NCBI GenBank assembly: GCA_034432815.1
Contig: DAOUBN010000053.1
Coordinates: 1-35,951 of the forward strand
DNA length: 35,951 nucleotides
Source: Anaerolineae bacterium
Lineage (GTDB): Bacteria; Chloroflexota; Anaerolineae; SpSt-600
Reading direction: 5' to 3'
The position numbers and the translations under genes were made by a program. This document shows positions 3,192 to 35,951 of the stretch, piece by piece (position 1 is the stretch's first letter; the number at the start of each line of letters is the position of its first letter). Under the pieces are notes generated by a model. The model saw only the letters and a list, made by a program, of their open reading frames with translations. It had not been told where the DNA came from and searched no databases.

Positions 3192-3216
3192 AGCCTCCTC
3201 CAGTTGAAAGTATCAG

Positions 3217-4721: not shown

Positions 4722-4725
4722 TTAA

Positions 4726-5358: not shown

Positions 5359-5419
5359 TTTCTTTCTGCTCTGGAACGATTTGTAGATGGGGCGACCCCT
5401 GAGGGCCGCCCCATTGCTT

Positions 5420-8400: not shown

Positions 8401-8992
8401 AATTGAGGCGCTCGGTGGCGGGGTCAACTCCGTAGGAGACGACTTTGTAGCGGCGGCCGGAGATGTTGAACTCGCTTCCGTGGGTGAGGTGGCCCCCCTG
8501 GAAGAGGTCCATCCCCATTATGGTATCGCCGGGGTTGAGGAGAGCATCATATACGGCGATGTTGGCGGCGGCGCCGGAGAGGGGCTGGACGTTGACGAAG
8601 ATCCGCTCCGGGGGCACCCTTTCGTTGGCGAAGGCCTGGGCAATCCTGCGCTGGGCGAGGGTTTCCACAAAGTGGACGTATTCAACCCCTTTGTAGAACC
8701 GCCTGTCGCCGTAGCGCCGGTAGTGGCTGAGCTGGTGGGCGAAGTCCATCACAAGCTCCATCTCTTCCCTGGTCATCCTCAGGGGAGGGTAGCCTTCGGC
8801 GTAGATGTTGTTGAAGACGGAGCCCAGGGCTTTGAGGACGGGTTCGGGGGCTATGCTCTCGGAGGGTATCAGGATGATCTTGCGGGCCTGTTTTTCCTCC
8901 TCAAAGCGGATGAGGCGGTCTATCTCCGGGTCAATGGCCGAGAGTTCCCCTTCAAGGATCGCACGGTATTCCTGAGCGAGCTTCAGGTCCAT
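5420..8992 (-). CDS. Fusion protein: serine hydroxymethyltransferase + GcvT-like domain + aminomethyltransferase (GcvT)
   Basis: aa 1-~475 are SHMT-like (SESIAPEPVLKALGSVF.NIYAEGYP, GGHLTHGS, PLP-lysine motif TTHKTICGPRG). aa ~505-780 are a degenerate GcvT/YgfZ-like fold (LLVVRGSRAEAFIQ..LLDADGKLLDDV). aa ~785-1190 are a full GcvT (TPLYEEHRKLGAKLIPFAGWEMPVWY..EEHRAVREAAGLFDVAHMG..ARTGYTGEEWGYEIF..ARDSTRTEAGLPLYGHEL). RBS AAGGAGGGGG precedes the ATG. Confidence 0.85.
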   Translation of the reverse strand: MDLKLAQEYRAILEGELSAIDPEIDRLIRFEEEKQARKIILIPSESIAPEPVLKALGSVFNNIYAEGYPPLRMTREEMELVMDFAHQLSHYRRYGDRRFYKGVEYVHFVETLAQRRIAQAFANERVPPERIFVNVQPLSGAAANIAVYDALLNPGDTIMGMDLFQGGHLTHGSEFNISGRRYKVVSYGVDPATERLNYNQIMKLALEYRPRLIIAGYTSYSWAPDWEKFREIADAVGAYLMADIAHTAGLVVAGAHPSPIGIADVITFTTHKTICGPRGAVIITTDEELAQRIDAAVFPGIQGGPHVNKFAAIAVAFKIAQTETFKRIQYKIVENAKALAEAFQKRGIKVAYGGTNTHMVVLDLRSIRTDTGYPVKGEIAARLLDIAGIIVNKNTIPGDTMTPLASGIRLGTPWVTQRGLDAEEMDEIADIMTEVLVNIKPFRYYGRDHELPRGKIELEILKKAACRVDELIDRIPICPPPCRTGYPHYCFLPGKEPVRKPLFEEKAIPAGEGPFLFDLTSLGLLVVRGSRAEAFIQQVNTANLADLRPGMAARSFLLDADGKLLDDVSILRLPDDSRGRQQYLVVTNPENTERVKDWFRALSDGYTIFDRQDILAKVEGPVIVEDLWEDMEEPWRKVAIGVAGKEAVSRLKGLLPWLPEMPLNRFWAGQVDGVETLAARVDYGNGCELLMLISHPDNIARLWGILRQNGFQPSSPQAYRSWRSGADWPSYDGERPDALTLYRSNHRDLFALSKPYFVGEKFLASERPPVQKEEFRWEEKPGPLKHTPLYEEHRKLGAKLIPFAGWEMPVWYTGVLEEHRAVREAAGLFDVAHMGVFEISGEHATRFLDFVTTNYVRWLEDGQSLYSYLLDPDGNVIDDVMIYRIRRDRYIMVVNAANEEKDWAWLNAVNSRRVIVDRENPAKEVDGQAILRNLKDPSSGKDMRVDMALQGPASIHILMSLADRDGREILKRMRRTELAEMTLDGMDVIVARTGYTGEEWGYEIFVHPDDAPRLWNLLLEKGKPFGIKPAGLGARDSTRTEAGLPLYGHELAGPFNIDPIEAGFAPYVKFHKPYFIGRKAIIEKEARRTREIIRFRMNRKGVPRPEPGDPVVNQRGDYIGVVTSCAIDTEGFLTGMALVDRRHAREGSQIGIFAGRARQREVKPVDKLGPGDSVPLPEWATILPRFMRRT

Positions 8993-9004: not shown

Positions 9005-12000
9005 TTAGCGATTCATTTTACCAATTGCAGGCACTTCGGCGCTCTTTGGCTTTTTGCTTTCCAGGACTTTCTCTATTTCCGGGACGTTCTCTCCGAGGAG
9101 GCGGCGCAGTTCAAAGATTTCGTCGCGCAACATGGCCGCTTTTTCAAATTCCAGGTTCTTTGCGGCGATGTGCATCTGGTTCTCCAGTTCCTTTATCATG
9201 CGCCTGATTTCGTCCTTAGGGATTTCCTCACCCCGCACGATGTATTCGGCTTTGCGCTCCGCCACTTTCCGGACTCTGTCTGTGAGGTCGCGCACCTCTT
9301 TGACGATGCTGCGGGGCTCAATGCCGTGGCGCAGGTTGTATTCCATCTGGATGCGGCGGCGGCGCTCGGTCTCTTCTATGGCCCGGCGCATGGATTCGGT
9401 GATGGTGTCGGCATACATTATGGCGGTGCCTTCCACGTGCCTTGCCGCCCGCCCAATGGTCTGGATGAGGGCGGTCTCGGACCGCAGGAAGCCTTCTTTA
9501 TCGGCGTCCAGGATGGCCACCAGGGAGACTTCGGGCAGGTCCAGGCCCTCCCGCAGGAGGTTTATCCCCACCACCACGTCGTAGACGCCAAGGCGCAAGT
9601 TGCGCAGTATCTCCACCCGCTCAATGGTGTCAATTTCCGAGTGGAGGTAATGCACCTTGATGCCCATCTCGGCGAGATACTCGGCCAGGTCCTCGGCCAT
9701 CCTCTTGGTGAGGGTAGTGACCAGGGCCCGCTGCCCCTTTTCCACCCGCTTGCGGATTTCGGAGATGAGGTCATCAATCTGGCCCTTAGTGGGGCGCACC
9801 TCCACCTTCGGGTCCACGATTCCGGTGGGCCTTATAAGTTGCTCCACGACCTGTTCGCTCTTTTCCAGTTCGTAAGGGCCTGGGGTGGCGGAGGTGAAGA
9901 TGACCTGGCGCACCCGCTGCTCAAATTCCTCAAACTTGAGGGGCCTGTTGTCCAGGGCCGATGGCAGGCGGAAGCCGTAGTCCACCAGGGTTTTCTTGCG
10001 GGTGTAATCTCCGTGATACATCCCCCTGAGCTGGGGTATGGTCATGTGGGATTCGTCTATTATGACCAGGAAATCGTCGGGGAAGTAATCCAGGAGGGTC
10101 CAGGGGGGTTCTCCAGGCTTGCGGCGGGAGAGGTGGCGGGAGTAGTTTTCAATGCCGGGGCAGTAGCCTGTGGTCTTCAGGAGCTCCAGGTCGTAGCGGG
10201 TGCGCTGCTCAAGGCGCTGGGCCTCCAGGAGCTTCCCCTGAGCTCTGAGTTCCGCCAGCCTCTCCTCCAGTTCCTGCTCTATGTCCCTTATGGCCAGCTG
10301 GAGCTTTTCGTAAGGGGTGATGAAGTGCTTTGCCGGGTAAATGGCTACGGAGTCCAGCTCCCTGAGGATCTCGCCGGTGAGGGGGTCAAATTCGGTTATG
10401 CGCTCTATTTCATCGCCCCAGAATTCAATGCGGTAGGCAGTCTGGAGGTAGGCGGGCTGGACTTCCACGGTGTCTCCCCGGACCCGGAACCTCCCCCTTT
10501 CCAGGACGGTGTCGTTTCTCTCATACTGGATTTCCACCAGGTGGCGGAGGATTTTGTTGCGGCGGCGGACTTCGCCACGCCTGAGGGTTAGCACCACCTG
10601 GCCGTAGTCCTCGGGGCTTCCGAGGCCGTAGATGCAGGATACCGATGCCACGATGATGACGTCCCGGCGGGAGAAGAGGGCGGATGTAGCGGCCAGGCGC
10701 AGGCGGTCAATCTCCTCATTGATGTCGGCGTCCTTCTCTATGTAGAGGTCGTATTCGGGCAGGTAGGCTTCGGGCTGGTAGTAGTCGTAGTAGCTCACGA
10801 AGTATTCAACGGCATTGTGAGGGAAGAATTCCCGGAATTCGGCGTAGAGCTGAGCGGCCAGGGTCTTGTTGTGGGCGATGACGAGGGTTGGCTTCTGGAC
10901 CTGTTCAATGACTTTGGCCATGACGAAGGTGTTGTGCACAAAGAGCCCTCCCGCACCGGCTAAGAAGGTTTCATTCCCGGCCACGCTCAGGTCGTAAACG
11001 TAAGGCGAGGAAGCGCTTGCCGGCTCAACGCTGGCCACCGGCGACCAGCGGACCTTCAGGCGGCTCTGGAGTTTTCTCCAGCCTTCCCACCACTTTTCAT
11101 CTTCGTGATGCCTGGCCCCGGCTATTTCGCTTAAGGCTTCAAGAAGGCGCTGGAAGCTGGCGCGGGATGGGTTCCGGACCTGGCATTCAATCGCCGAGAC
11201 CAGCTTCTGGCTGACGCCTGCTGCTTGAGCCAGGAGTTTTTGGCTGACGCCCAGAGCCAGCCGCAGGTCCCGAAGGGAGCTCCCGACATCCGGGATTATG
11301 TCTACGCTGGAATTGGCCTTTCTGGCGATTTCCTGTTCCAGAGCCTCTGCTTTTCCGGCAAGGGAGAACCCGATGTGCTGATGGAAGGCGCGCAGGTTTT
11401 CCTGGCCAGATATGCTCACCTTCCAGTACCAGTCGCCCGGGTGATTGCCGTTGGTTGCCCGCTTGCGCACGCGCTGAATGCGAGCCCAGATGCCGAAGCG
11501 CAACAGCGCATAGGCCAGTTCGTAAGCCAGGCGCTGGCTGGCCGTGGTCACGGTCACGCATCCTTTATCACGCTCAACCGTCCCATCGCCATCAAAGTAG
11601 GCTTGCAGGAGTATGGCCAGCTGACGGTTGGACAGTTGAGGCCAGAAAGGAGGCAGGTGCTTCTCGCGAGCCACCCGGCCTGCCAGGCGGGCAAACAGCC
11701 GGGCAAGGGGAGCCGATGAGATCTGGAAATCGCTTGAGGGTCGGATTGTGAAGCGGAGCCCCAGTTCTGTCAGGCTTTCCGCGATGTGTTCCCTCAGTTG
11801 AGGGGAGCGGTTGGCCAGGATGAGGTGATTCCCTTTGGCCGTCGCCGTCCCTTCGGCCAGGTAACAGCCAAGCAGCCTCAGGAAAGCATCAGTAAGGCGC
11901 AATTCCAGGGGCAACCCTGAGCGCTCTAACCTGCCGGCCACATGAGCCTGCTCCGGGTGCCAGGTTCCCTGAAAGCTCTCCGTTGCCTCTGGACAGGAGT

Positions 12001-12670
12001 AATGAGGGGCGAGGAGGGCGGTGAATTCCTGCCCGCCCCTCGCCGCGATGTATTCGGCAATTTGTTGACGGGCTTGGATGAACAGGCCTGCGTCCTGCAG
12101 GTAATCCAGCAGGTTCAGGTCTGGAAGGTCCTGCGCAGGGGCAGGAATGCTGAGGGGGATGGGTATGTAATCCCCGGGGCGAATTTCGGTGGTAGGAAGC
12201 AAGTGCATCTGTCCGTCCCGGAGCACCCAGAGGTTGTGGTCTCCGGTGATGACCGCGCTTCTGCCGCATTTCAGGGTCACCCGGAACATCCGCTCGGGGG
12301 CGCGATGCCGGATGAAAGCCATAATGGGTTTCGGTTCCACCTCGCCTGTGCGGGCGTTGAAGCTCAAAGTCCAGTATGAGCCGGGTTCAGGGCGCGCCAC
12401 CACCGTGTCGCCGTAGTGTTCCACTCTGGAGGCTCTTTTTATCGCAGCTTCAATAAGTTCCCCGATAGGGACAAGCTCAAAGCGGAAGCCATCGCTCTCC
12501 TTCCGGGCGATGAAGACGGGCTCGGCGCCGTCCAGGCTCTTGCCGGTGCCCGTGGCTCCCAGCAGGGTCTGGTAGCGGTATCCTTTGCGGATACCTTCTA
12601 CCAGTTTTTCTATGGCCTGGGGCTGGTCGCCTGTGGGTTTGAAGGGGGAGACGAGTTTAAACCTTTCCAT
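9005..12670 (-). CDS. uvrB: Excinuclease ABC subunit B (UvrB), interrupted by an intein
   Basis: [38 protein letters not shown]|...|[25 protein letters not shown], helicase motifs and a C-terminal UVR motif ([17 protein letters not shown]). Start set at ATG 12670. The track's 56-codon extension to 12838 is translated repeat DNA. Confidence 0.9.
10931..12538 (-). mobile_element. Intein (536 aa, Ser1...His-Asn / Thr+1) with LAGLIDADG homing-endonuclease and HTH regions, inserted in the UvrB Walker A motif
   Basis: It begins SLDGAEPVF directly after GATGTGK and ends GGLFVHN directly before TFVMAKV. Block B is [18 protein letters not shown] motifs are [11 protein letters not shown] and [15 protein letters not shown]-like HTH is [25 protein letters not shown]. 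Block F is [12 protein letters not shown]. Length is 1608 nt, in frame. Confidence 0.85.
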
Positions 12671-13235
12671 TTTTGTTTCCCCACCCTCGTGGGCTCGGGG
12701 TTCGCCATGGTTCAGGATCCCACTCGTGGGCAAGTTGCGGGAGTTGCCTTCTCGCTCCTTTGATTGGTTTTTCTGGGGGCACATCCCCCATACCCCCTGG
12801 CATGGGGCTTTGCACCCTGCACCCCCGATTTTCCCCACCCTCGTTTGCTCTGGGTTTGCCCACGTTCAGAGTCCCACTCGTGGGCGGGTTGCGGGAGTTG
12901 CCCCCTCGCCCCTTGATTTGTTTTCCTGGGGGGACACCCCCCAGACCCCCCGGGAGGGGGCTCGCCCCCTCCAACCCCTTGAGGTTGTTTTCCCGGGGGC
13001 ACATCCCCCATACCCCCAGCATGGGGGCTTCGCCCCCCCTGCACCCCTCTTTCCCCACCCTCGTTTGCTCAGGGTTCGCTGGGCTTCAGGGGCCCCCTCG
13101 TAGCCAGGTTGCAGGAGTTTCCCGCTCGCCCCTTGATTTGTTTTCCTGGGAGGACACCCCCCAGACCCCCGGGAGGGGGCTCGCCCCCTCCACCCCCATT
13201 TTGGGGACACCCCCCAGGCCCCCCGCCAGGGGGTT
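12671..13235. repeat. Mosaic A/B interspersed-repeat cluster 2 (three same-orientation A1+B units)
   Basis: A1 copies at 12679-12758, 12833-12912 and 13053-13132, each followed by 1-2 B modules (e.g. 12928-12978). Confidence 0.85.
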
Positions 13236-13256
13236 CTATGTTTCCTCCTCGTTTAA

Positions 13257-16253
13257 TTATACCTCCACGCGGGAGAGGTCAGCAATGCCTCTGGGGAGGA
13301 GGGCTATGCGCTGGAGGAGGGCGAGTCTGTTCTCCCTTATCTCCCTGTCCTCCACCATGACAAAGACTTCGTAAAAGAACCTGTCTATCGGCTCTACAAG
13401 GGGCATGAGCAGGGCGAAGAGGCCGTCAATGTCGTTGACCTTTCGCCTCTTCTCCTCCGCCTCCAGATATGCCCTGTAGAGGTCGTGTTCGGCGGGTTCG
13501 GTGAAGAGTTCCGGGCGGAGGGGCAGGAGCTCAGGCACATCTTTCACTATCCTGGCCGGCCGGATGAAGGCAGTCATGACGGCGGGGAACTCGGGTTTCT
13601 GCGCCCAGCGGGCCAGGTCCTGCAGGGTGACCCAGGCTAAATAAGGGTTATCGGCCCGCTCGGCCAGGACGGCTTCTATGAGGTCGGGCCGGTAGCCTCT
13701 CTCCTGGAAGAGGCCCCGCATCCTCGCCACGATGAATTCCAGGGCCTCCTGCAGGATTTCCCCGGTGATGGCCAGCGGGAGAAGGCGAGCCGCTTCGGCC
13801 AGGGCCTCCCGGAGGGACAGGCTTATGCCTTTGTCCACCAGGATCTGGACAAGGCCCAGGGCCGTCCGGCGGAGCCCGTAAGGGTCGGCTGAGCCGGTGG
13901 GAGCAAGCCCCGCTCCGAGAAGACCCACCAGGCTGTCCAGTCTGTCGGCAATCCCCACCACTGTGCCGGGGATGGTGCGGGGAAGGGAATCGCCGGCGAA
14001 GCGAGGCAGGTAGTGCTCAAAGATGGCTTCGGCCACCTCGGGATCTTCCCCCCAGTGGAGGGCGTAGTGGCGGCCCATGGTCCCCTGCAGGCTCGTTAGT
14101 TCTACAACCATCTGGGTGGCAAGGTCGGCCTTGCACAGGCGGGCGACTCTGGAGGCCTTTTGGCTTTCCTCTTCGGAGAGGCCAAGGCGCCGGCAGAGCC
14201 ACGGCACGAGTCTTTCCAGCCTGCTCACTTTGTCCAGCATTGACCCGAGCCTTTCCTGGAAGGTGAGCCCCCCGAGCTTCGGCAGGTATTCCTCAAGGGG
14301 CTTTTTGAGGTCTGTTGCGATGAAGTAATCGGCATCGGAGAAGCGGGCCCGCAGGACTTCTTCGTTCCCCCTGCGGACTATGTCCAGGTGGCGGGTGTCC
14401 CCGTTGCGGACGGCGATGAAGTAGGGGAGGAGTTTGCCTTCCTGGGAGAGGACAGGGAAGTAGCGCTGGTGTTTCTTCATCACGGTTATCAGGACTTCCT
14501 GGGGGAGGCGGAGGAAGGCGGGGTCAAAGGACCCCCGGAGGGCCGTCGGCTTTTCCACGAGATTGGTTACCTCTTCCAGCAGAGCCGGGTCATCCGGGAT
14601 CAGACCTCCCACTTCCGAGGCCAGTTCGGCTGCCTGCCTCCTTATTTCCTCCCGGCGTTTCTCCAGGTCCACCACGATCCCGGCCTCTTCCATGGCTCTG
14701 AAGTAGTCTTCAGCCCTGGGGATTTCAATGGCAGGGGAGCCTTCGGGCCTGAGGCCCCTGGTGGTGCGGCCGGAACGGACCCCGGCGTATTCAAAGCTCA
14801 CCACTCTGGCCCCGAAGAGGGCCACGATCCAGCGGATCGGCCTTGAGAACCTCACGCCGCTTTCGTTCCAGCGCATTGTGAGGGGGAAGCGCAAGGATGA
14901 GATGAGCCTGGGGAAGAGTTCGGCCAGGACGGAGGGGGTTGCTTCCCCTTTTTTCCGGACCACGGCCACCACATAGCGCTTGTCCTCGTATTCCCTTATC
15001 TGGAGATCTTCCACTCTCACGCCCTGCTTTTCGGCGAAGGCAATGGCGGCTCTGGTGGGTTTTCCCTCCGGGTCAAAGGCTGCCGAAGCCGGAGGCCCTT
15101 TGACCACCATTTCCTCTTCTTCCTGGCAGGAAGCGAGGTTTCTGATGTAGAGGACAAGGCGGCGGGGGGTTCCGGCCACGTAGAGGCTTTCGTAGCGGAG
15201 GCGAGCCTGGGCGAGGAGATCCGGGGCAAGTTCCCGGATCTGCTCCACTGCCAAGCTCAGGTCGCGGGCTGGCAGCTCTTCGGTGCCGATTTCCAGGAGG
15301 GCATCGGCGTAGGGGGGCAGGTCTTCTGTTCCCTCCGGCTCAGGGATCGCTTCTGCCTTCTGCCGGGTTGGGGCTCCTTTCAGCCAGGGGAAGCCCGCTT
15401 CCTGGCGCTGGTTCAGGTAGAGCTGGGCGGCCTGGCGGGCCAGATCCCGCATCCGGGCGAAGTAGGAGGCCCTCTCAGCCACCCCTATCGTCCCCCGGGA
15501 GTCCAGGAGGTTGAAGGTATGGGAGCAGCGTAGGATGTAATCGTGGGCCGGGACTACCAGGCCCCTTTCCAGGCAGCGTTTAGCTTCGGCCTCGTATTCG
15601 TTGTAGAGGCGCCGGAGCCTTTCCACATCCGCTTCTTCAAAGTTGTAGATGCAGTGCTCCACTTCCGAGCGGAGGAGGATATCGCCGTAGGAGTGGATCC
15701 CGTCCCAGTCAATTTCCCATACGCTCCTGACTTGCTGGAGGAACATGACAATGCGTTCAAGGCCGTAGGTTATCTCCACGGCCACGGGGTTCAGGTCAAT
15801 TCCTCCCGCCTGCTGGAAGTAGGTGAACTGGGTTATTTCCAGGCCGTCAAGCCAGACTTCCCACCCGAGTCCCCAGGCTCCGAGGGCCGGGGATTCCCAG
15901 TTGTCCTCCACGAAGCGGATATCGTGCTGGCGGGGGTCTATGCCCAGAACCTGAAGGCTCTCCAGGTAAATTTCCTGAGGGTTGCCGGGGTCGGGCTTGA
16001 GGATGACCTGGAACTGGAAGTGGAGTTGCATCCGGTTGGGGTTCTCCCCGTAGCGTCCATCGTCGGGGCGGTAGGATGGCTCCACGTAGGCCACGTTCCA
16101 GGGTTCGGGCCCGAGGACCCGCAGGAAAGTAGCCGGGTTCATGGTCCCGGCCCCAACTTTTTCGCTGTAAGGCTGCCATATCAGGCATCCCCTGTCGGCC
16201 CAGAACCTCTGCAGGCGGAGGATAACTTCCTGAAATGAAAGCGCTTTGCCCAT
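13257..16253 (-). CDS. glyQS: Glycine--tRNA ligase, fused alpha (GlyQ) and beta (GlyS) chains
   Basis: The N-terminus ([78 protein letters not shown]) closely matches GlyQ. The remaining ~700 aa are GlyS-like. Single 998-aa ORF. Confidence 0.9.
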
Positions 16254-17454: not shown

Positions 17455-17830
17455 CCAAGGAACCCGGAAGAGATGGCCCGCGAAACCGGCGCCCTCCAGC
17501 TGGTTAGGCCGCCTCATCGGGGCTCTCCTTGAAAGAGAAGGGGCTTCCTTTGAGCCTCATCGCCCAGACCTTGCCTGCCCAGAAGGCTGAGACCGCTCGC
17601 CGCCGGGTTCGCCAGGCCAGCCAGAATAAAGGGCACACACCCGGCGGGCTATCTCCTTCTGCTGACCAATTTACCTGCTGGCGTGTGGGGAGCAGAGGCG
17701 ATTTTGGGCCTCTACCGACTGCGCTGGCAGGTGGAGTTGCTTTTTTCTCCGGTTGAAAGACCCCGTTCTGGCCCAGGTCTGTTTGCTGGGCAAGGTGCTG
17801 GCTCTGCTCCTTATGGAGGGGGTTGCCGGG
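17455..17830 (+). pseudogene. Decayed IS4-family-like DDE transposase remnant (internally deleted, frameshifted)
   Basis: One frame reads ..GFARPARIKGTHPAGYLLLLTNLPAGVWGAEAILGLYRLRWQVELLF, which includes the Y-x2-R-x3-E part of the YREK signature. After a frameshift near 17745-17755 it continues as LKDPVLAQVCLLGKVLALLLMEG. An upstream fragment reads EEMARETGALQLV. No intact ORF. Confidence 0.5.
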
Positions 17831-18042
17831 GTAGCGGGGGGACGGAGTCCCCCTGACGGGGGGAAGTGGGGGGTGTCCCCCTACAAAAACAAAATTGGGG
17901 GCGAGTTGGCAACCCCTGAAACCCGCCCACGAGTGGGACCCTTAAGCCAGGCTCAGCCGCAGCAAACGGGGGTGGGAAAAATGAAAAAAGGCGGGGGGGA
18001 CATCCCCCGCATCCCCCCGGGAGGGGACAAAGCCCCCTCCGC
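17830..18042. repeat. Mosaic A/B interspersed-repeat cluster 3
   Basis: A reverse B (~17836-17885), then A2 at 17897-17976, then one more B. It directly abuts the transposase remnant. Confidence 0.8.
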
Positions 18043-20980: not shown

Positions 20981-21125
20981 TTCTCCCTCCATCTCTGGCA
21001 ATTTTACTGCAAAGGACGCAGACGTTGCAAACCTTTCCTGGGGCAGCCATTTGCGCAACTGCAAAGGCCCCAGGGTCAGGCCTTCCGGACGGGTCACCAT
21101 GTCCTGGCGCATTTACTTTGCCGGC

Positions 21126-21154
21126 TTGACAACTCGCTATTATTTCGGTATGAT
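21126..21154 (+). promoter_or_regulatory. Sigma-70-like promoter of the fur/perR-sor-prx operon
   Basis: TTGACA (21126-21131), a 17-nt spacer, then TATGAT (21149-21154), about 35 nt upstream of the Fur-family start. A short palindrome TCTAaaTAGA at 21155-21164 is a weak operator candidate. Confidence 0.5.
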
Positions 21155-21188
21155 TCTAAATAGATACTGGTTTTCCACAAGGAGGGTT

Positions 21189-21623
21189 ATGAGGTTACGG
21201 GATGAGCAACTGGAAGAGGTGACGAGGAAACTGCGGGAACGGGGGTATCGCCTTACGCCTCAGAGGATGGCGATAATCAAGGCCATTTTGTCCAGTAAAG
21301 AACACCCAACGGCTGAGGAGATATACAACCAGCTGGTGGGGGATTTCCCCATGCTGAGCCTGGCTACTGTCTATAAAACTCTGGATGTGCTCAAAGATCT
21401 GGGGCTGGTGATGGAGATAAAGGTGGAAGGTGCAGGGTATTACGACTCTGGCCTTATCCCGCATCCGCATTTAATTTGCGTGAAGTGCCATCGCATTGAA
21501 GACCTGCCCCCCGAGACGATGTGTTTGCCTCCGGAAGAGATCCTCTTGACCAGAGGGTTTAAGCCCATCCGGGTCCAGTTAGAAATTTATGGATTGTGCT
21601 CCCGGTGCCAGGAGCAGGCTTAG
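21189..21623 (+). CDS. Fur-family metalloregulator (PerR/Fur-like)
   Basis: LTPQRMAIIKAILSSKEHPTAEEIYNQL....LATVYKTLDVLKDLGLV, HPHLICVKCHRIED and CSRC (two CxxC pairs). RBS AGGAGGG at 21179-21185. Confidence 0.85.
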   Translation: MRLRDEQLEEVTRKLRERGYRLTPQRMAIIKAILSSKEHPTAEEIYNQLVGDFPMLSLATVYKTLDVLKDLGLVMEIKVEGAGYYDSGLIPHPHLICVKCHRIEDLPPETMCLPPEEILLTRGFKPIRVQLEIYGLCSRCQEQA

Positions 21624-21659
21624 GAGGCAATTCGGATCCTATGCCAGGAGGGTGTTCAA

Positions 21660-22028
21660 ATGATAGGCGAGACCATTAAATCAGCAGACTGGAAAGCCGA
21701 GAAACATGTCCCGGTCATTGAAGCTCCTGATAAGGTGGAGGCCGGCAAGCCTTTTGAGGTAAGGGTTACCGTGGGCAAAGAAATCCCCCATCCCAACACC
21801 CTGGAGCATCACATCAAGTGGATTGACCTTTACTTCCAGCCTCAGGGCGACCAGTTCGCTTATCAGGTAGGGCATGTGGAGTTCAGCGCCCACGGTGAGG
21901 CCGAAACCGTCACTGCTCCCGTGGCCGTGTTCTCCTTGCGATTGGGCAAGCCTGGCAAGCTCATCGCCCTTTCCCTGTGCAACATCCACGGACTGTGGGA
22001 GAGCTCTTCTGAGGTCATGGTGGTCTAA
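21660..22028 (+). CDS. Superoxide reductase (1Fe-SOR / neelaredoxin type)
   Basis: SOR centre II ligand motifs EKHVPVIE, HPNTLEHHIKWIDLY and CNIHGLWES. 122 aa with no desulforedoxin N-domain. Confidence 0.85.
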   Translation: MIGETIKSADWKAEKHVPVIEAPDKVEAGKPFEVRVTVGKEIPHPNTLEHHIKWIDLYFQPQGDQFAYQVGHVEFSAHGEAETVTAPVAVFSLRLGKPGKLIALSLCNIHGLWESSSEVMVV

Positions 22029-22114
22029 AGATGCGAACGGAGGGGCGCAGGCGGCACAGGCGACGGCATCTCCTGGCGCCCCTTCACAAAAACTTTTTGT
22101 AAGGAGGGATTGCC

Positions 22115-22726
22115 ATGTGTGAAGAGAAGGTTGCTGTGGCCCGCGTCGGTAAGGAAGCCCCGGACTTTGAGGCCCCTGCTCTGATTGGGGGTGAAATCAA
22201 GAAAGTGAAGCTTTCCGATTACCGGGGCAAATGGGTGGTGCTGTGCTTCTACCCCTCTGACTATACCTTTGTCTGACCCACCGAACTGACGGCGGTCGCC
22301 GTCAGGTACAAGGAACTGCAGGAACTCGGGGTAGAAGTCCTGGCTATCAGCACCAACAACATTTTCGTCCACAAAGCCTGGCAGGATGGGGAACTCTCCA
22401 AGATGGTGGAAGGGGGAATTCCCTACCCGATGCTTTCGGATCCCGGCGGCAGGATCGGGAAGATGTATGGCGTCTATGACGAAGAAGCAGGCATTGACAT
22501 CCGTGGGCGCTTCCTCATTGACCCTGATGGGGTGATCCAGGCCGCCGAAATCCTTTCCCCGCCTGTGGGCCGCAATCCCGATGAACTCATCCGCCAGATC
22601 AAAGCGTTCCAGCACGTCAGGAAGACCGGAGAGGCCACCCCTTCAGGCTGGACTCCCGGCAAGAAGACCCTCAAGCCCGGGCCCGATCTGGTGGGCAGGG
22701 TCTGGGAAGTGTGGAAGCCGGAGTAG
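22115..22726 (+). CDS. Peroxiredoxin (AhpC/Prx1-like) with selenocysteine (TGA, codon 54) in place of the peroxidatic Cys
   Basis: ATG 22115 follows RBS AAGGAGGG. The read-through translation ..[16 protein letters not shown][TGA 22274-22276][72 protein letters not shown] matches 2-Cys Prx end to end. The track shows only 22403..22726. Confidence 0.8.
22286..22305 (+). promoter_or_regulatory. Candidate bacterial SECIS hairpin
   Basis: Perfect 8-bp stem CTGACGGC/GCCGTCAG with loop GGTC, starting 9 nt after the in-frame TGA. The spacing and the G/U-containing loop resemble the E. coli fdhF SECIS. Confidence 0.6.
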
Positions 22727-22747
22727 CCCCTGCCACTACAGCCGAGA

Positions 22748-22778
22748 ACCCGGCGGGCAAATCCCGCCGGGTTTTTTT
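22748..22778 (+). terminator. Rho-independent terminator of the prx operon
   Basis: ACCCGGCGGG-caaat-CCCGCCGGGT followed by a T7 run, 22 nt after the stop codon. Confidence 0.85.
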
Positions 22779-22921
22779 ACACCCGCAGGACGAAGTTGCT
22801 CCTCAGTCCCTCCGTGCAAGCCTTGAGGCGTGATGCGGGTGCTTTGCTATCCCCTGATGGGTTCTCAGCGGGGCGACCGCGGTCATTGCCGATTTGCAGG
22901 GTCACGTTAAGAGTTGCGCAG

Positions 22922-22949
22922 TTGACAGGCGACCTTTACTGTTTATCAT
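22922..22949 (+). promoter_or_regulatory. Sigma-70-like promoter upstream of the DarA-like gene pair
   Basis: TTGACA (22922-22927), a 16-nt spacer, then TATCAT (22944-22949), 54 nt upstream of ATG 23003. Confidence 0.45.
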
Positions 22950-23002
22950 ATAGCTATCCGATGGTGTTTCCGAGGAGTCCACTTTAAGCCGGAGGGGGCA
23001 AA

Positions 23003-23344
23003 ATGAAGGAGGGAAGTGTGGACCGCCTGGCTTTCACCATTGTGCACAGTTCTTACGTGCATGGGCTTCTCAAAGCCCTTTACAGGGAAGGGTTCCAGGC
23101 CACAGTCGTGGAGGTCAAAGGAGGGTTCCTGGAGGAGCCCATGGTGACTTTGCTGGTGGGGATGAACCATCGGAAGCTCCCCCTCTTCCTTGAACTCCTC
23201 AAGGCCCACTGCCCTGCCCGGTTCCGTTACGTTCCGGCAGGAGTTATCGCCACCTGGCCCCCTTCTTTCCCCCGAATGGTGGAAGCCAGCGCGGGAGGAG
23301 CAACAGTCCTGGTGGTCCCGGTGGAGAAGTTCTACCAGCTCTAG
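23003..23344 (+). CDS. PII-like cyclic-di-AMP receptor family protein (DarA/PstA, DUF970), divergent long-loop paralog
   Basis: LAFTIV...GFQATVVEVKGGFLEE..VTLLVG....GGATVLVVPVEKFYQL parallels my recollection of B. subtilis DarA (..[23 protein letters not shown]...GGATVFVLPVDEFHQF). Confidence 0.65.
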   Translation: MKEGSVDRLAFTIVHSSYVHGLLKALYREGFQATVVEVKGGFLEEPMVTLLVGMNHRKLPLFLELLKAHCPARFRYVPAGVIATWPPSFPRMVEASAGGATVLVVPVEKFYQL

Positions 23345-23353
23345 GAGGGGATC

Positions 23354-23623
23354 GTGAAAAAGTTAGTCCTTGCCATCGTAAAGGACAGCGATGCGCCTGC
23401 AGTTATGGAAGCCCTTATTGGCAGAAACTTCAGGGTAACCAGGATAGCCAGCACCGGAGGGTTCCTGCGGCGAGGGAACGTTACGCTTCTCATCGGCACA
23501 GAGGAGGAGCGGGTGGAAGAACTGGTCAGAGCCATTTCTGGGGCCTGCGCCGAGCCCCCGCCTGGTCAGCACAGAGCCATAGTTTTTGTGATACCCATGG
23601 ATCAATTCATCCGGGTGGGGTAA
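23354..23623 (+). CDS. PII-like cyclic-di-AMP receptor family protein (DarA/PstA, DUF970), short-loop paralog
   Basis: KKLVLAIVKDSDAPAVMEALIGRNFRVTRIASTGGFLRRGNVTLLIGTEEERVEELVRAI is very close to the DarA N-terminal two thirds. GTG start with RBS AGGAGGGG. Confidence 0.8.
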   Translation: MKKLVLAIVKDSDAPAVMEALIGRNFRVTRIASTGGFLRRGNVTLLIGTEEERVEELVRAISGACAEPPPGQHRAIVFVIPMDQFIRVG

Positions 23624-23627
23624 AGCA

Positions 23628-24905
23628 GTGCTCAGACGCCTTATAATCATCATAGAGGACGACTGGGGGCCCCGGGCAGGAACCCTGCTGCGCCGCTCCC
23701 TCCGGTGGTTCATAGCCGACGGGGTGTTCGGCGGCTCAAGCGATGCCATAGTGAATGCTTTCCTGTCCCTTTACCTCCTGGCTCTGGGCGCCACAAGGGC
23801 CCAGATAGGGCTCCTGGCTTCCTTCTCCAACTTCACCATGCCCCTGGTGATGTTCCCTGGAGCTGCTCTGGCCGAAAGGGCCACCGAATACAAGAAGTTC
23901 GTCCTGAGGGCGCTCATTCTGAGCAAATCCACCCTCTTTTTCCTGGCCCTCCTGCCCTTCTTCCTCATAGGAAGGGCTGTGGTCCCGGTCGGAATAGGGC
24001 TGGCCGTCCTGCGGGTCCTTGCGGCCCATTTCGCCAACCCCGCCTGGACCGCTTTCGTGGGGAAGCTTGTGCCTCTGGAGTGGCGGGGAAGATACTTTGC
24101 CTCCCGCAACATCCTGATAGGCCTGGCCAGCATTGCAGTGACTCTGGTCGCCGGCGCTCTGGTGGACCTCTTCGGAAAGCCCGGCGGCTATCAGGTGGCT
24201 TTCGGCTTGGCCGGCATCCTGGGATTGCTTTCGGCCTATTCCTTCTCCAGGATTGAAGAGCCACAGGTCGCCCGGAAGAACGTTCACGGGATTTCGGTGG
24301 CAGCGGCGCTTAAGGACGCCGGGAGGATAGCAGGATTTCTGCCTTTCTGCATCCTTTCGGGCCTCTGGAACTTCTCAGTTCAGGTTGCGGGACCCTTTTT
24401 CCCGGTTTACATGGTGGAGGGGCTCAGGGCCGGAGGCACCCTGGTAGGACTCACCTCTTCACTGGCAACTCTGGCCTCAATTCCGGGGCAGAGGATCTTC
24501 GGCCGCCAGGCCGATGAGCGGGGAGCCCTGTGGGTTCAGAGACTCACTTCGTTCCTCATCCCTTTCGTCCCCTGGCTCTGGGCCATAGCTCCGGGGGTTT
24601 GGTTCATAATGCCCGTTGAGCTCTTCAGCGGCTTCGTCTGGGCGGGTTTCAACCTCGCCGCCTTCAACCTCCTGCTGGAGTTCACCCCTCAGGAGGGCAG
24701 GCCAATATATGTGGCCCTCTACCAGGTGATCGTGGGGGTTGGGATGAGCATAGGGCCGATGGTGGGAGGAGTTCTGGTGGATGCTCTGGGCTACAGGGGC
24801 TTGTTCGTGCTTTCGGGGGTGTTGCGAGCCATCACCGCAATCCTTTTCGTCCTCTTCCTCCGCAGGGGTAGCACCAGAGGCCAGCGAGGAGGGGAAAAGG
24901 GTTAA
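23628..24905 (+). CDS. MFS-type transporter
   Basis: 425 aa with about 12 hydrophobic segments and an MFS-like loop motif (AERATEYKK / GRQADERG). The GTG start is 4 nt after the preceding stop. Confidence 0.75.
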   Translation: MLRRLIIIIEDDWGPRAGTLLRRSLRWFIADGVFGGSSDAIVNAFLSLYLLALGATRAQIGLLASFSNFTMPLVMFPGAALAERATEYKKFVLRALILSKSTLFFLALLPFFLIGRAVVPVGIGLAVLRVLAAHFANPAWTAFVGKLVPLEWRGRYFASRNILIGLASIAVTLVAGALVDLFGKPGGYQVAFGLAGILGLLSAYSFSRIEEPQVARKNVHGISVAAALKDAGRIAGFLPFCILSGLWNFSVQVAGPFFPVYMVEGLRAGGTLVGLTSSLATLASIPGQRIFGRQADERGALWVQRLTSFLIPFVPWLWAIAPGVWFIMPVELFSGFVWAGFNLAAFNLLLEFTPQEGRPIYVALYQVIVGVGMSIGPMVGGVLVDALGYRGLFVLSGVLRAITAILFVLFLRRGSTRGQRGGEKG

Positions 24906-24974
24906 TTGGAGCTTTTCAGCGCTCTCCTGCATCCGGGCGGGGGGAAAAGGAGGCAGAGGATATCCCCTGCTCAT

Positions 24975-25800
24975 TCTTTTTCACCACTCTCGTTAGCTTT
25001 AGGTTCGCCAGGGTTAAGGGGCCCACTCGTGGGCGGGTTGAAAAATGGGGGTGGAGGGGGCAAAGCCCCCTTGCATCCCCCCAATTTTTTCCCACCCTCG
25101 TTTGCTGAGGGTTCGCCATGGTTAAAGGGCCCCCTCGCGGGCAGGTTGCGGGAGTTGCCTTCTCGCCCCTTTAATTGGCTTCTTTGGGGGGACACCCCCC
25201 ACACCCCCCGGGATGGGGCTCCGCCCCCTCCACCCCCGTGATTTGTTTTTTCCGGGGGCGCATCCCCCACCCCCTGGCATGGTGGCTTCGTCCACTTGCA
25301 CCTCCGATTTTTCCCCACCCTCGCTTGCTGGAGGTTCGCCGAAGTTAAGGGTCCCACTCGCGGGCGGGTTGCGGGAGTTGCCTTCTCGCCCCTTTAATTG
25401 GTTTCTTTGGGGGACACCCCCAACCTCCGGGAGGGGGCGAAGCCCCTTCCACCCCCGTAAAAGAGGAAAGAGGGAGTGCAGGGGGATGGAATCCCCCTGG
25501 CGGGGGGAAGTAGGGGGTGTCCCCCCACGAAAACAAAAAGGGGGGCGAGCTGGCACCTCCTGAAACCCGCCCACGAGGGGGCCCCTGAAGCCAGGCTGAG
25601 CCGCAGGAAACGGGGGTGGGGATTTGTTTTTCTGGGGGCACATCCCCCAACCCCCGCAGGGGGGCGAAGCCCCCATGCACCCCCGATTTTTCCCACTCTT
25701 GGGCGGGTTGAAAATTGGGGGTGGAGGAGGCAAAGTCCCCCTGCATCCCCCCAATTTTCAGGAGGACATCCCCACGCCACTGGAGGGGGGCAAAGCCCCT
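24975..25800. repeat. Mosaic A/B interspersed-repeat cluster 4 (largest)
   Basis: A1 copies at 24981-25039 (truncated), 25091-25170 and 25313-25392. A2 at 25540-25622, an A fragment at 25691-25709, and at least 8 B modules in both orientations. Confidence 0.85.
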
Positions 25801-28094: not shown

Positions 28095-28400
28095 TGCAGG
28101 ATTGGGGCACATCCCCCAGGCCCTCTGGACCCCCTTCTGGGGGACACCCCTCGCAGCCCCCGGGATGTGGCAAGCCCCCTCTACCCCCTGGAAAAGGGGG
28201 TGCAGGTGGACAGGGTCCCCCTGACGGGGGGAAGTGGGGGGTGTCCCCCCCCACGAAAACAAAAGGGGGCGAGTTGGCATCTCTTTAAACCCGCCCGCGA
28301 GTGGGACCCTGAGGCCAGACTGAGCCGTAGCAAACGGGGGTGGGGAAAGAGGGGGTGCAGGGAGACGGAGTCCCTCTGCCGGGGACAAAGCCCTTTCCCT
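28095..28400. repeat. Mosaic A/B interspersed-repeat cluster 5
   Basis: Two forward B modules, a reverse B at 28199-28251, A2 at 28265-28345 and another reverse B. It lies between convergent genes. Confidence 0.8.
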
Positions 28401-32744: not shown

Positions 32745-32840
32745 GAGCAACAGGGGGTGCAAGGGGCCCCAGTCCCCCTGCCAGGGGGCTTTGCCCCCGG
32801 ACCCCCTTTTGGGGACACCTCCCACAGCCCCCGTTGGGAA
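32745..32840. repeat. Mosaic repeat cluster 6 (B modules only)
   Basis: GGGGTGCAAGGGGCCCCAGTCCCCCTGCCAGGGGGCTTTGCCCCCGGACCCCCTTTTGGGGACACCTCCCACAGCCCCC, i.e. one reverse B-like and one forward B-like module. Confidence 0.6.
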
Positions 32841-32883: not shown

Positions 32884-32914
32884 GTAAAAGCCCTTTGGCA
32901 AAAGGATTTTTGCG

Positions 32915-35900
32915 ATGACATGGCGTTTTTTGAACCTTTTAGTGATAGCGAGCATGCTTTTCTCCCACTTAGCCAACCCCATCGGGCACCCTTTCCAGAG
33001 CCCTCTACCCACGCCCACTCCAGTTCTCTCCCCCACCTTTTCAAGCCCCCTGCCTGCCCCTCAGGAGCAGGTCCCATCCGGCCCTGAGGTGCCTCCTCCC
33101 CAACCTTTGCCTCCACCCGAGACCGTTCCCGTCCAGCCCGGGCAGACCATTGCCCTGGCTCAGGGCCGCGTTACCTTGACCATACCTGAAAAGTCCCCTC
33201 TCCGCAAGGTCACCCTCAGAGTGACTCAACTCAGGCCACTGGCCGGGCATGAAGCAGGCCTGGCTTTCGCCTTTGACCTGACCGCCTCTGACGCGGGAGG
33301 TAAAACCCTCAGCCTTCTTCCCGCCCCCATAACGGTCAAACTCAACCTGAATGGCCTGGTAAACTGGGCCTCCCGCCCTGACTGGCTCCGCCCCTGGGTT
33401 GGATTCTGGGATGAAAAGGGCCAGAACTGGCAGACCATAGAACCCATCTTCGTGGACGAGCAAGCCGGAGTAATAGCCTTCACCACCGATCACCTCTCCA
33501 CCTTCGGGGCCGGCACCCAGGGAGTTACAGTGAGTGGATGGATCCTCAACTTCAACGACACCAGGACAGACCTCTTTTCCGGCGCCTTAATCTGGGAGTA
33601 TCCTTTTGACCTGCCCCCAGGACCCGGGGGGATCAGGCCGGACCTGCGCCTCTCCTACAATAGCCGCAGGCTGGATGGGATCCTCCCCTGGGCCCAGTCC
33701 GATGGCGTGGGCTGGGGCTGGAGCCTGGACATAGCCGACATCCTCTGGCGCAATGTCCACCGCTGCAAGGGGAGCGGAGAATCCGATTATTACCTCTGCT
33801 GGGATAATGTCCCGCTGCTGGTGCTGAACGGGGAAGCCCTGAAACTTATCCCGGAGACCTCCCTCCCGAACGACATCCAGTATAACGGACCAGGATCCAC
33901 AACCTACAGCTTTCACACCGAAGACGAGAGGTTCTGGCGCATCCTCTGGAAACCGGGGTCTGAGAACGGCTACTGGGAAGTAACCCTCAAAGACGGCACG
34001 CGCTACCTTCTTGGAACCACCCCCGATAGCCGGCAGGTGTTGAGGGGCACCGCCCATGCCACCGTCCGCTGGCGGGGGAAAGGGATAATCTACCCCACGG
34101 GCCTCACCGTCACCTTCACCTACACTGAACAGACCCTGGCCCAGCAGTGCGAGCTCTTCAAGGCGGCAAACTTGATTAAAAGCACCGACACCTGCCACGG
34201 AGACCATTCAGACTCCGAAAGGCCAAGTTCCCTCACCCAGATTGAATCCCCGGGAACGAGGGTGAAGGTCCTCTGGGCCCGCCGCTGGAACGGCAACGGG
34301 CCCAACGACGGCTTCGGCCCCGAAGCCTACCGCGGGGATTTCGCCTCCGCCGGGATGGCCGCCATCTTCTGGCAGACCGACGCCGTCCAGAAAGTCGTGG
34401 TGGAGCGCCGGCGAGGGGATGGGACCTGGCAGCCTGTGCGGGAGGTCCGCTTCACCTACGGGACTTACACCCCGATGGATGAGGGGAACAAACGACTGCG
34501 GACCCTCACCGCCCTGCAGGAATGGGCCCCGGAGGGAAGCGCCTGGAAAGCCCTGCCCCCCTTCACCTTTGAATACACTGGATATCCCAATAAGGACTGG
34601 TGCAACACCTACTTAATCAAGACCTGCTCCGAGTGGGACCAGGCCCAGTTCTACTACCCCCGCCTGACCCGCATCAATAACGGATATGGAGGGGTGATTG
34701 AGATCAATTACGCCACCCCCGATGGGGGCTACTGGCAGGCGAAGAACTACCGGGTGGCCCAGCGGAAGGTCACCGACGGGCTGGGAGGAGGATGGAGAGA
34801 AGTTTACGCTTATTCCGACAATCCTGATGGACGATGTTACCTCTCCAGTGCGGATGCGGAAAGGTGCAAGTGGTATGATGAATTCCCGGACATAGGGGGA
34901 GGGGTCAGGGCCACCGGCGGCCTCTTCCTGGGCTACTGGGAGGTCACCGTGACCTTCCAGGACCTCGCCGGCGCCGCCCAGAGGGTGGAATGGACCCGCT
35001 TTGCCCTCCCCGGGGGGCCCACCAACGACCCCTGGCCCGCCCGGGGCCGCCCACGGGAGCGCCAGGTCCGGGATCCCGGCGGAGCTGTCCTCCAGGCCAT
35101 CGCCTACACATATGGCTTTTCCCCCACCGTAGACACCGCAGGCAAGGCGAACTTCGTCTTCCTCCAGCGCCAGGATATAACCACTGACGGCCGCACGGCC
35201 CGAACGGAATACCGCTACGACGCCTACGGGAACGTCACCGCCGTCTTCGAGCACGGCTTCCTTGACGTCTCGGGGGACGAGCGCTCCACCCACCGGGGCT
35301 ATGCTTCCAACCCCACCGCCTGGATCGTGGACAAAGTCGCCTGGGAGAACGTTTACGACGGCATCACCGAAAACACCGGGGGAGAAGCGCTGCGCACCCA
35401 GACCCGCTTCTACTACGACGGGGCTTCTTCCTTCACCACCCCACCGGTGAAGGGATTGCTGACCCGGGTGGACCGGGGCAAAGAAGGCTGGGGCTGGGGC
35501 ACCGAGCAGGCCGCCTACGACGCCTACGGCAACCCCACCGTCATCACCGACGCCCGGGGCTTCGCCACAACCTTCTCCTACGACCCCACGGGAGTCTACC
35601 GGCTCTCCGAGCGCAACGCATTGGGGCATATCACCCGCTATGAATACTACGGCATCAACGAGAGCGCCCCCGGTAAGGGCCGGGGGCCGGTGGGAGCCCT
35701 GAAGCGGGTTGTGGACCCCAACGGAGCGGCCACCGCCTACACCTACGACCCCTTCGGCCGGCTGCGGACGGTGGTGCGCCCCGGAGACTCCTGGGACTAC
35801 CCCACTGAAGAATGGCTGTATTACGATGGAGTGGACCACTCCTTCACCGACCGCTGGCCCCTGATGGTCGTGCGCCTGGTACGGGGGACGCCGGGGGCAG

Positions 35901-35951
35901 CCTGGTGCTCGGGTGGACTGGCAACCTGGGAACGGCTCTACTACGACGGCC
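32915..35951 (+). CDS. Secreted SpvB/TcdB-N-domain + RHS/YD-repeat protein (Tc-toxin B/C-like or polymorphic-toxin shell), 3'-partial
   Basis: Absent from the ORF track because no stop occurs before the window end. I translated it by hand in the frame with codon starts = 2 mod 3. It starts MTWRFLNLLVIASMLFSHLANP (signal-like), followed by a Pro-rich linker. Next is LIWEYPFDLPPGPGGIRPDLRLSYNSRRLDG..GVGWGWSLD, the SpvB/TcdB N-terminal signature. YD repeats follow (YRYDAYGNVTAV, YDAYGNPTVITDARGF..FSYDPTG, YTYDPFGRLRTVV). At least 1012 codons are open. Confidence 0.85.
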   Translation, partial: MTWRFLNLLVIASMLFSHLANPIGHPFQSPLPTPTPVLSPTFSSPLPAPQEQVPSGPEVPPPQPLPPPETVPVQPGQTIALAQGRVTLTIPEKSPLRKVTLRVTQLRPLAGHEAGLAFAFDLTASDAGGKTLSLLPAPITVKLNLNGLVNWASRPDWLRPWVGFWDEKGQNWQTIEPIFVDEQAGVIAFTTDHLSTFGAGTQGVTVSGWILNFNDTRTDLFSGALIWEYPFDLPPGPGGIRPDLRLSYNSRRLDGILPWAQSDGVGWGWSLDIADILWRNVHRCKGSGESDYYLCWDNVPLLVLNGEALKLIPETSLPNDIQYNGPGSTTYSFHTEDERFWRILWKPGSENGYWEVTLKDGTRYLLGTTPDSRQVLRGTAHATVRWRGKGIIYPTGLTVTFTYTEQTLAQQCELFKAANLIKSTDTCHGDHSDSERPSSLTQIESPGTRVKVLWARRWNGNGPNDGFGPEAYRGDFASAGMAAIFWQTDAVQKVVVERRRGDGTWQPVREVRFTYGTYTPMDEGNKRLRTLTALQEWAPEGSAWKALPPFTFEYTGYPNKDWCNTYLIKTCSEWDQAQFYYPRLTRINNGYGGVIEINYATPDGGYWQAKNYRVAQRKVTDGLGGGWREVYAYSDNPDGRCYLSSADAERCKWYDEFPDIGGGVRATGGLFLGYWEVTVTFQDLAGAAQRVEWTRFALPGGPTNDPWPARGRPRERQVRDPGGAVLQAIAYTYGFSPTVDTAGKANFVFLQRQDITTDGRTARTEYRYDAYGNVTAVFEHGFLDVSGDERSTHRGYASNPTAWIVDKVAWENVYDGITENTGGEALRTQTRFYYDGASSFTTPPVKGLLTRVDRGKEGWGWGTEQAAYDAYGNPTVITDARGFATTFSYDPTGVYRLSERNALGHITRYEYYGINESAPGKGRGPVGALKRVVDPNGAATAYTYDPFGRLRTVVRPGDSWDYPTEEWLYYDGVDHSFTDRWPLMVVRLVRGTPGAAWCSGGLATWERLYYDG

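Follow-up and report, generated by a model that had tools for sequence, protein, structure and literature searches.

We analyzed a 35,951-bp contig (DAOUBN010000053.1) from a metagenome-assembled genome (MAG) labelled Anaerolineae bacterium; the contig, at its full length, is referred to here as the window. Our subject is prxU, a gene that very probably encodes a selenocysteine (Sec)-containing peroxiredoxin and that gene calling breaks apart at an in-frame TGA codon. The coding sequence occupies positions 22115-22726 on the plus strand, from an ATG at 22115 to a TAG at 22724-22726, and comprises 203 codons when the predicted Sec54 is included. A Shine-Dalgarno sequence, AAGGAGG, can be read directly at 22101-22107 (+), 7 nt before the ATG. 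The sole in-frame interruption, likewise read from the sequence, is the TGA at 22274-22276 (+), which falls on the peroxidatic position of the active-site motif PxxxTxxU and would be decoded as Sec. It is followed by a hairpin at 22286-22305 (+), a candidate selenocysteine insertion sequence (SECIS), and by 149 codons that contain no frameshift and no further stop and in which the conserved residues are kept. Toward the C-terminus, the codon ACC at 22637-22639 (+) places a threonine (Thr175), within the motif GEATPSGW, at the position of the canonical resolving cysteine of 2-Cys peroxiredoxins. In the list of open reading frames (ORFs) the gene is divided into 22115-22276 (53 aa) and 22403-22726 (107 aa). 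A first-pass annotation of this DNA had described the gene as hidden in the form of a truncated ORF, which is how gene callers treat it: they return either 53 + 107 aa or, in homologs, a Trp at the active site. Its positions for the ATG, the TGA and the hairpin proved exact.

The encoded protein belongs to the PrxU family. Protein searches were run with Cys substituted at the TGA, and the product scored 359.6 bits (E = 7.7e-108) against the NCBIfam equivalog model NF040737 (peroxi_PrxU), over profile positions 30-231 of 233; the curated equivalog cutoff is 270 bits. This model is specific to the clade. A score of 350-362 bits is reached by two close Sec-type orthologs, and only 157-206 bits by four Sec-peroxiredoxins of a more distant group (40-50% identity), taken from Neobacillus, Maledivibacter, Aquificales and Planctomycetota genomes. 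The AhpC equivalog score of the product, 192.5 bits, lies below the corresponding cutoff of 272. Pfam assigns the domains AhpC-TSA (7.6e-41) and 1-cysPrx_C, and solved 2-Cys peroxiredoxins align full length with E-values down to 1.7e-52. Matches of this order (about 1e-52) to solved peroxiredoxins already establish the predicted fold, in agreement with the earlier reading of a full Prx fold from ATG 22115 through the TGA, which the NF040737 and Pfam results support as well. Residues P47, T51, R130 and R153, invariant or nearly so in 92 aligned sequences, are all present, and P47, T51, U54 and R130 align to active-site residues of Prx2 and AcePrx-1. Over residues 3-203 the protein is 70-78% identical to its orthologs.

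Typical 2-Cys peroxiredoxins (AhpC and Prx1-4; PDB 4fh8, 1qmv and 1we0) share the fold and the catalytic residues with the window protein over the full length (E-values of 1e-48 to 1e-52). They differ from it at three positions: the window protein would carry Sec in place of the peroxidatic Cys, it has Thr for the resolving Cys of the GEVCP motif, and it has Cys where they have Phe, ten residues before the peroxidatic position (Cp-10). The replacement of the canonical resolving-Cys motif by GEATPSGW, noted in the first-pass annotation, thus stands, and with this motif and an AhpC equivalog score below the cutoff the protein falls outside the AhpC/Prx1 class.

The in-frame TGA is a conserved feature of the family. 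A genome scan limited to one genome per species, with the pattern D[FY]TFV-TGA-PTE, matched at least 120 species genomes. All 121 matches listed read through the TGA within a peroxiredoxin ORF; nearly all of them are full length, the exceptions being a few truncated where a contig ends. Among the matches listed, about 95 are 57-78% identical to the window PrxU, the best coming from Chloroflexi HyVt-544 (78%), an Ardenticatenia MAG (77%) and two Anaerolineae MAGs (77-78%). About 30 of the at least 120 genomes with a TGA-type prxU are labelled Chloroflexota. Other taxa among the matches listed are Thermodesulfobacteriota and other Deltaproteobacteria, Bacillota, Zixibacteria, Ignavibacteria, Acidobacteriota and Planctomycetota. 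A TGA codon common to at least 120 species means that the class is widespread. The first-pass annotation had called it a rare selenoprotein class, which does not hold, the family also being listed as verified in reviews and having its own NCBIfam model.

The same scan bears on the possibility that prxU is a pseudogene, in which a TGC- or TGT-to-TGA nonsense mutation disabled an ordinary Cys-peroxiredoxin and left the 107-aa ORF behind as a remnant. The division of the gene by gene callers into 53 + 107 aa is what this explanation would lead one to expect. A true pseudogene would be accompanied by orthologs that decay after the TGA; what we found is that the same codon is TGA in at least 120 species and that the ORF downstream of it is intact in each. 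The uninterrupted 149 codons of the window gene, with their conserved residues, speak against a nonsense mutation in the same way.

A separate database comparison covered the best 120 full-length homologs, at 62-76% identity. Among those of the best 120 that read FV-x-PTE, the peroxidatic residue is W in 48, Cys in 41 and Arg in one; about 20 more of the 120 have W within an FVWATE variant. In the DNA of two of these homologs (P0002 and P0069) the W corresponds to TGA, and translation with table 11 gives a stop at that codon. A gene caller working with genetic code 4 turns TGA into W, and about two-thirds of the best 120 homologs bear an artefact of gene calling at this gene. The homolog with Arg (FVRPTE), a close PrxU homolog on a 2330-bp ENA contig (P0026), may reflect a TGA-to-CGA/AGA change or a sequencing error.

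That many database gene calls give W at this codon, as a code-4 caller would, could also be taken as a sign that TGA is reassigned throughout the genome (genetic code 4 or 25); alternatively, the TGA of the window might be a sequencing or assembly error. Global reassignment is excluded: TGA stops 10 of the 26 confident genes of the window, the ends of these genes fit their Pfam domains, and TGA stands in frame only in prxU. An assembly error is unlikely. More than 100 independent genomes have TGA here, and window positions 21600-23000, the TGA included, recur with 100% identity in another assembly, Logan DRR082460, although this assembly and the MAG probably go back to the same reads, so that it is not fully independent. 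In that assembly, too, the gene caller divides prxU into 53 + 107 aa. We accordingly give error and reassignment, taken together, almost no credence.

The candidate SECIS element lies directly downstream of the TGA. Its 8-bp stem pairs CUGACGGC (22286-22293) with GCCGUCAG (22298-22305) around the loop GGUC (22294-22297). The conserved core, at 22288-22303 (+), is a 6-bp stem that begins 11 nt past the UGA and displays G22295 and U22296 in the loop. When the U of the UGA is counted as nt 1, the core stem starts at nt 15, after the 11-nt spacer, and the tetraloop GGUC occupies nt 21-24, so that the UGA-to-apical-loop distance is 17 nt. In bacterial SECIS elements this distance is 16-37 nt (PMC10778597), and the first-pass description of a perfect 8-bp stem with a G/U tetraloop at the distance expected of a bacterial SECIS is therefore accurate. 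Taken alone, the hairpin folds with -15.4 kcal/mol (z = -4.65), and 0 of 200 shuffled sequences are as stable.

The minimal SECIS of E. coli is a stem-loop of 17 nt, separated by 11 nt from the UGA, in which U17, G23 and U24 are conserved (PMC8659212). Like the E. coli fdhF-type element, the prxU hairpin is a stable structure that lies in the ORF just 3′ of the UGA; it has an 11-nt spacer before the core stem, a loop distance within the bacterial range and a conserved loop G-U, the SelB contact (G23/U24 in E. coli), which in prxU is part of GGUC. The two differ in that the prxU stem is perfect and lacks the bulged U of the 5′ arm (U17 in E. coli fdhF), and because there is no bulged U the loop G-U lies one nucleotide nearer the UGA. 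Furthermore, the pairing of the lower stem is not conserved in prxU.

Comparative data give the hairpin its significance. We used an ungapped alignment (A2) that extends from TGA-6 to TGA+47, in which 95 PrxU-type orthologs join the window to give 96 sequences; nearly all of these have the hairpin at one and the same offset. Standard pairs make up 83.8% of the cells, compared with a mean of 73.4% after shuffling; 113 cells are altered on both sides, compared with a shuffled mean of 43; and the covariation score is 0.347, compared with a shuffled mean of 0.163. For these three measures and a fourth, 0 of 500 shuffles come up to the observed value, and the covariation score of slid-register controls is 0.07-0.13. 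In columns 24:33 the pair is G:C in 73 sequences and A:U in 15; in columns 27:30 it is A:U in 48 and G:C in 39. Since these covarying pairs join synonymous third codon positions, constraints on the protein cannot explain the covariation. The loop in the 96 sequences is GGUC or AGUU, with G28 at least 90% conserved and U29 invariant. The 6-bp core averages -9.2 kcal/mol and is more stable than -5 kcal/mol in 89 of the 96.

A control for these observations is provided by genes that encode the same peptide with an ordinary cysteine. A metagenome scan for Cys-type genes encoding FVCPTE[LI]xAVA returned 28 loci, which were compared with 82 Sec forms. The 6-bp core is fully paired in 3 of the 28 Cys forms versus 51 of the 82 Sec forms, and columns 27/30 are A:T or G:C in 7 of 28 versus 80 of 82. 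The Val codon GUG is common among the Cys forms and never occurs in the Sec forms. The hairpin is under RNA-level selection, and this selection is specific to the TGA forms. The alignment with Cys-containing orthologs that the first-pass annotation had proposed as a check comes out in its favor: Cys-encoding homologs of the same peptide mostly lack the hairpin and TGA orthologs keep it. Covariation at synonymous sites, set against Cys forms of identical peptide, shows cleanly how the structure of an RNA can constrain the sequence that encodes a protein.

Three Cys-type genes on metagenome contigs (L143, L144 and L149), 73-78% identical to the window PrxU, carry a fully paired hairpin, GCGGC-AGUU-GCCGC. 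They are among the Cys forms closest to the Sec forms and, judged by their sequences, look like recent Sec-to-Cys conversions. Another variant concerns 7 of the 96 PrxU genes (L015, L039, L063, L079, L115, L116 and L121), several of them from Syntrophomonadaceae, Clostridia and Caldisericales MAGs. This subgroup encodes IS[HS]IAVG and has a different hairpin, CAUAGC-N3-GCUAUG, which is shifted downstream and replaces the GC-N-GU-N-GC hairpin.

The existence of Sec-to-Cys conversions in the clade, some with an intact hairpin, lends some plausibility to a scenario in which the source organism has lost Sec decoding, prxU being either a very recent relic or a gene expressed at a low level through near-cognate readthrough, with Cys or Trp placed at the UGA. 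Consistent with such a loss, the contig carries no Sec machinery. On the other hand, neither the ORF nor the SECIS shows decay, we saw no other TGA form that combines a degraded hairpin with lost function, and about 30 other Chloroflexota genomes among the matches listed have a TGA-type prxU. We consider this scenario very improbable.

From these data we conclude, with a probability of roughly 90%, that 22115-22726 (+) encodes a 203-residue, Sec-containing peroxiredoxin of the PrxU family whose UGA is recoded by means of a SECIS element. This was the core claim of the first-pass annotation, and it is borne out by the family score, the conservation of the TGA, the TGA-specific covariation and the ordinary use of TGA as a stop elsewhere in the window. 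In the mechanism that we propose, the UGA at codon 54 would be recoded to Sec during translation. The hairpin, which begins 11-12 nt past the UGA, would expose the conserved G-U dinucleotide in its apical loop, and this dinucleotide would recruit SelB-GTP-Sec-tRNA(Sec) to a ribosome that holds the UGA in its A site. In the finished enzyme Sec54, in place of the peroxidatic Cys of PxxxTxxC, would attack peroxides and be converted to a selenenic acid, which a thiol would recycle; this thiol may be thioredoxin, acting possibly via the conserved Cys44. NCBI names the NF040737 family ‘thioredoxin-dependent peroxiredoxin’. Insertion of Sec in the source organism, binding of SelB, enzymatic activity and the identity of the reductant are what we infer from sequence comparison. 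The SSB protein encoded on the contig groups with proteins of Chloroflexi and Anaerolineae MAGs. The finding suggests that the source organism, a Chloroflexota-like anaerobe, probably uses selenium, and it has value for annotation, given that gene callers deliver two fragments or an active-site Trp.

Several observations weigh against this conclusion, in addition to the probable shared origin of the Logan assembly and the MAG. No selA, selB, selD or tRNA-Sec was found within the 35,951-bp contig, a single contig of the MAG, by a scan that combined ARAGORN (0 tRNAs) with Pfam searches of 30-odd ORFs of at least 100 aa. An Rfam scan of the window gave no family at the gathering threshold. When 66 nt around the hairpin are folded, the stability is nothing out of the ordinary (z = -0.66), and perfect 8-bp hairpins are not rare in the window, which has a GC content of 60%: there are 18 of them, compared with 7.5 +/- 3.1 in Markov simulations, many of the 18 being members of a dispersed G-tract repeat family. 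Because such hairpins are common and the 66-nt fold is unremarkable, the single-sequence evidence for the hairpin is only moderate. RNAalifold with default scoring found zero consensus pairs in alignment A2, a result that was reproduced; with RIBOSUM scoring it returned a 7-bp hairpin at columns 20-26/31-37. Finally, at four positions that are nearly invariant in the clade, the window protein has residues other than the consensus: S48, Y50, N81 and N82. N81 (in 10 other Sec forms) and Y50 recur inside the PrxU clade, S48 is found only in more distant Sec-peroxiredoxins and N82 in none.

Two of these points also add to the case for a pseudogene, namely the four unusual residues at near-invariant positions and the Sec machinery, which is seen nowhere on this one contig and leaves Sec decoding by the organism a matter of inference. 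Set against them are the perfect TGA-specific hairpin of the window and the recurrence of N81 and Y50, two of the four residues, in other Sec forms of the PrxU clade. Together with the intact downstream frames in at least 120 species, these facts leave the pseudogene explanation with a very small share of the probability.

Sec-peroxiredoxin (TxxU) is among the experimentally verified prokaryotic selenoprotein families, for which two reviews cite Sohling et al. 2001 (PMC13188914, PMC9312934). The first description of PrxU concerned Eubacterium acidaminophilum (Sohling et al. 2001, as cited in PMC13188914 and PMC9312934). With a family known since 2001 and a curated NCBI model in existence, our finding adds nothing new in kind. 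The window protein resembles the E. acidaminophilum/NF040737 PrxU in its score above the cutoff, its TxxU motif with predicted Sec, its AhpC-TSA and 1-cysPrx_C domains, its lack of the canonical C-terminal resolving Cys and its length of about 200 aa. The E. acidaminophilum protein is reportedly also 203 aa long. The differences lie in the host, a Chloroflexota-like MAG as opposed to a Gram-positive amino-acid fermenter, in the placement of the window gene in a perR-like/dfx cluster and in the minor variants S48, Y50, N81 and N82. Other Sec-peroxiredoxin clades (the Bacillus/Neobacillus/Rossellomorea and Clostridia types) also have TGA at the peroxidatic codon and the same GC-N-GU-N-GC type of hairpin, encoding AAVAA. 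Unlike the window protein, to which they are 39-50% identical, they have Phe at Cp-10, and the four tested score below the PrxU cutoff.

The first-pass annotation had further labelled the enzyme a 1-Sec peroxiredoxin. The part of this label that refers to the canonical resolving Cys is correct, that residue being replaced by Thr175; at this position the 92 aligned sequences have Thr in 61 cases, Met in 14 and Cys in 12. The label as such is not established, because a cysteine lies 10 residues before the Sec in 88 of the 92 aligned Sec-type sequences, the window included. In the window this residue is Cys44, encoded by TGC at 22244-22246 (+) within VVLCFYP, and it is a candidate resolving residue by position and conservation. 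In the database homologs, Cys44 occurs in 67 of 68 TGA forms but, among Cys forms, in 23 of 50. At Cp-10 the residue is Phe or Ile in ordinary Prx and in the six distant Sec-Prx that were examined, and we know of no Prx subfamily with a resolving position there. It is conceivable, though on balance doubtful, that Cys44, on strand beta3, resolves the oxidized Sec through an intramolecular selenenylsulfide, in which case the PrxU clade would not be truly ‘1-Sec’. Part of the same tentative proposal, separate from the chemistry, is that the in-ORF SECIS fixes the peptide x-A-V-A-x and that the hairpin persists as a fossil in recent Sec-to-Cys converts. The conserved Cys44 is best regarded as a testable mechanistic lead and not as a finding.

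prxU is the last gene of a small cluster that consists of a promoter-like site, a PerR-like regulator, dfx, prxU and a terminator. The promoter-like site, TTGACA-17-TATGAT (11 of 12 consensus positions), is at 21126-21154 (+) and is the probable promoter for perR-like/dfx/prxU. The site falls within the N-terminal extension of a long ‘Fur’ ORF at 21051-21623 (+), which encodes a Fur-family (PerR-like) regulator (Pfam PF01475 FUR, 1e-26). The FUR domain begins only at residue 63 of this ORF, and the true start of the Fur-family gene is probably downstream of 21154. The gene immediately upstream of prxU, at 21660-22028 (+), encodes a desulfoferrodoxin/superoxide reductase (dfx; Pfam PF01880, 1.1e-35). 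An intrinsic terminator follows prxU at 22749-22778 (+), formed by CCCGGCGGG-CAAAT-CCCGCCGGG and then T7, with a folding energy of -25.9 kcal/mol (z = -4.83); it was found by folding and had been missed by a consensus terminator scan. The cluster is a typical oxidative-stress module of an anaerobe. A Fur-family gene adjoins the peroxiredoxin gene in 13 fetched loci, 11 of TGA type and 2 of Cys type, and a dfx homolog is near it in 7 fetched loci (4 TGA-type, 3 Cys-type).

The 86-nt spacer between dfx and prxU contains a GC-rich imperfect hairpin, GGAGGGGCGCAGG...CCUGGCGCCCCUU, at 22039-22085 (+). Its stability is not significant (z = -1.68); it may serve as an attenuator or a processing site. 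Directly past the prxU terminator, at 23003-23623 (+), are two tandem paralogs of a cyclic-di-AMP receptor (PF06153; 113 and 89 aa), which have their own promoter-like site at 22922-22949 and are followed by a gene for a major facilitator superfamily transporter.

A search of the window for a second selenoprotein gene, based on in-frame TGA codons between ORF halves, gave only off-frame artefacts of the 60% GC sequence. The most promising candidate, at 33587-34612 (-), was rejected, as its translation is of low complexity and it is antisense to a long plus-strand ORF that runs off the end of the window. This plus-strand ORF (32888-35950, at least 1021 aa) is missing from the ORF list because it runs off the contig end, and the minus-strand ORFs in the same region, such as 34613-35839 and 33587-34207, have no Pfam matches and are probably antisense artefacts.

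Dispersed intergenic repeats occur at about 3220-3770, 12675-13250, 17765-18040, 24980-25800, 28100-28400 and 32750-32830. They form a family of modular units of 45-230 nt, which are present in as many as 10 copies and contain G-tract hairpins of the kind GGGGGGACACCCCCC, and look like repetitive extragenic palindromes (REP) or miniature inverted-repeat transposable elements (MITE). ORFs without Pfam matches that lie in these repeat stretches (3049-3675, 12866-13210, 24477-24974 and 25122-25754, all on the minus strand) are probably spurious.

Four further minus-strand loci of the window are recorded here. At 3789-5490 (-) a ThaI-family restriction endonuclease stands beside an N4/N6 DNA methyltransferase, a type II restriction-modification pair. 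A single 1190-aa ORF at 5420-8992 (-) fuses serine hydroxymethyltransferase (SHMT) with the folate-binding domain of aminomethyltransferase (GcvT). The UvrB gene at 9005-12838 (-), a 1277-aa ORF, is interrupted by an intein with LAGLIDADG homing-endonuclease and helix-turn-helix domains, and a fused GlyQ-GlyS glycyl-tRNA synthetase is encoded at 13257-16253 (-).

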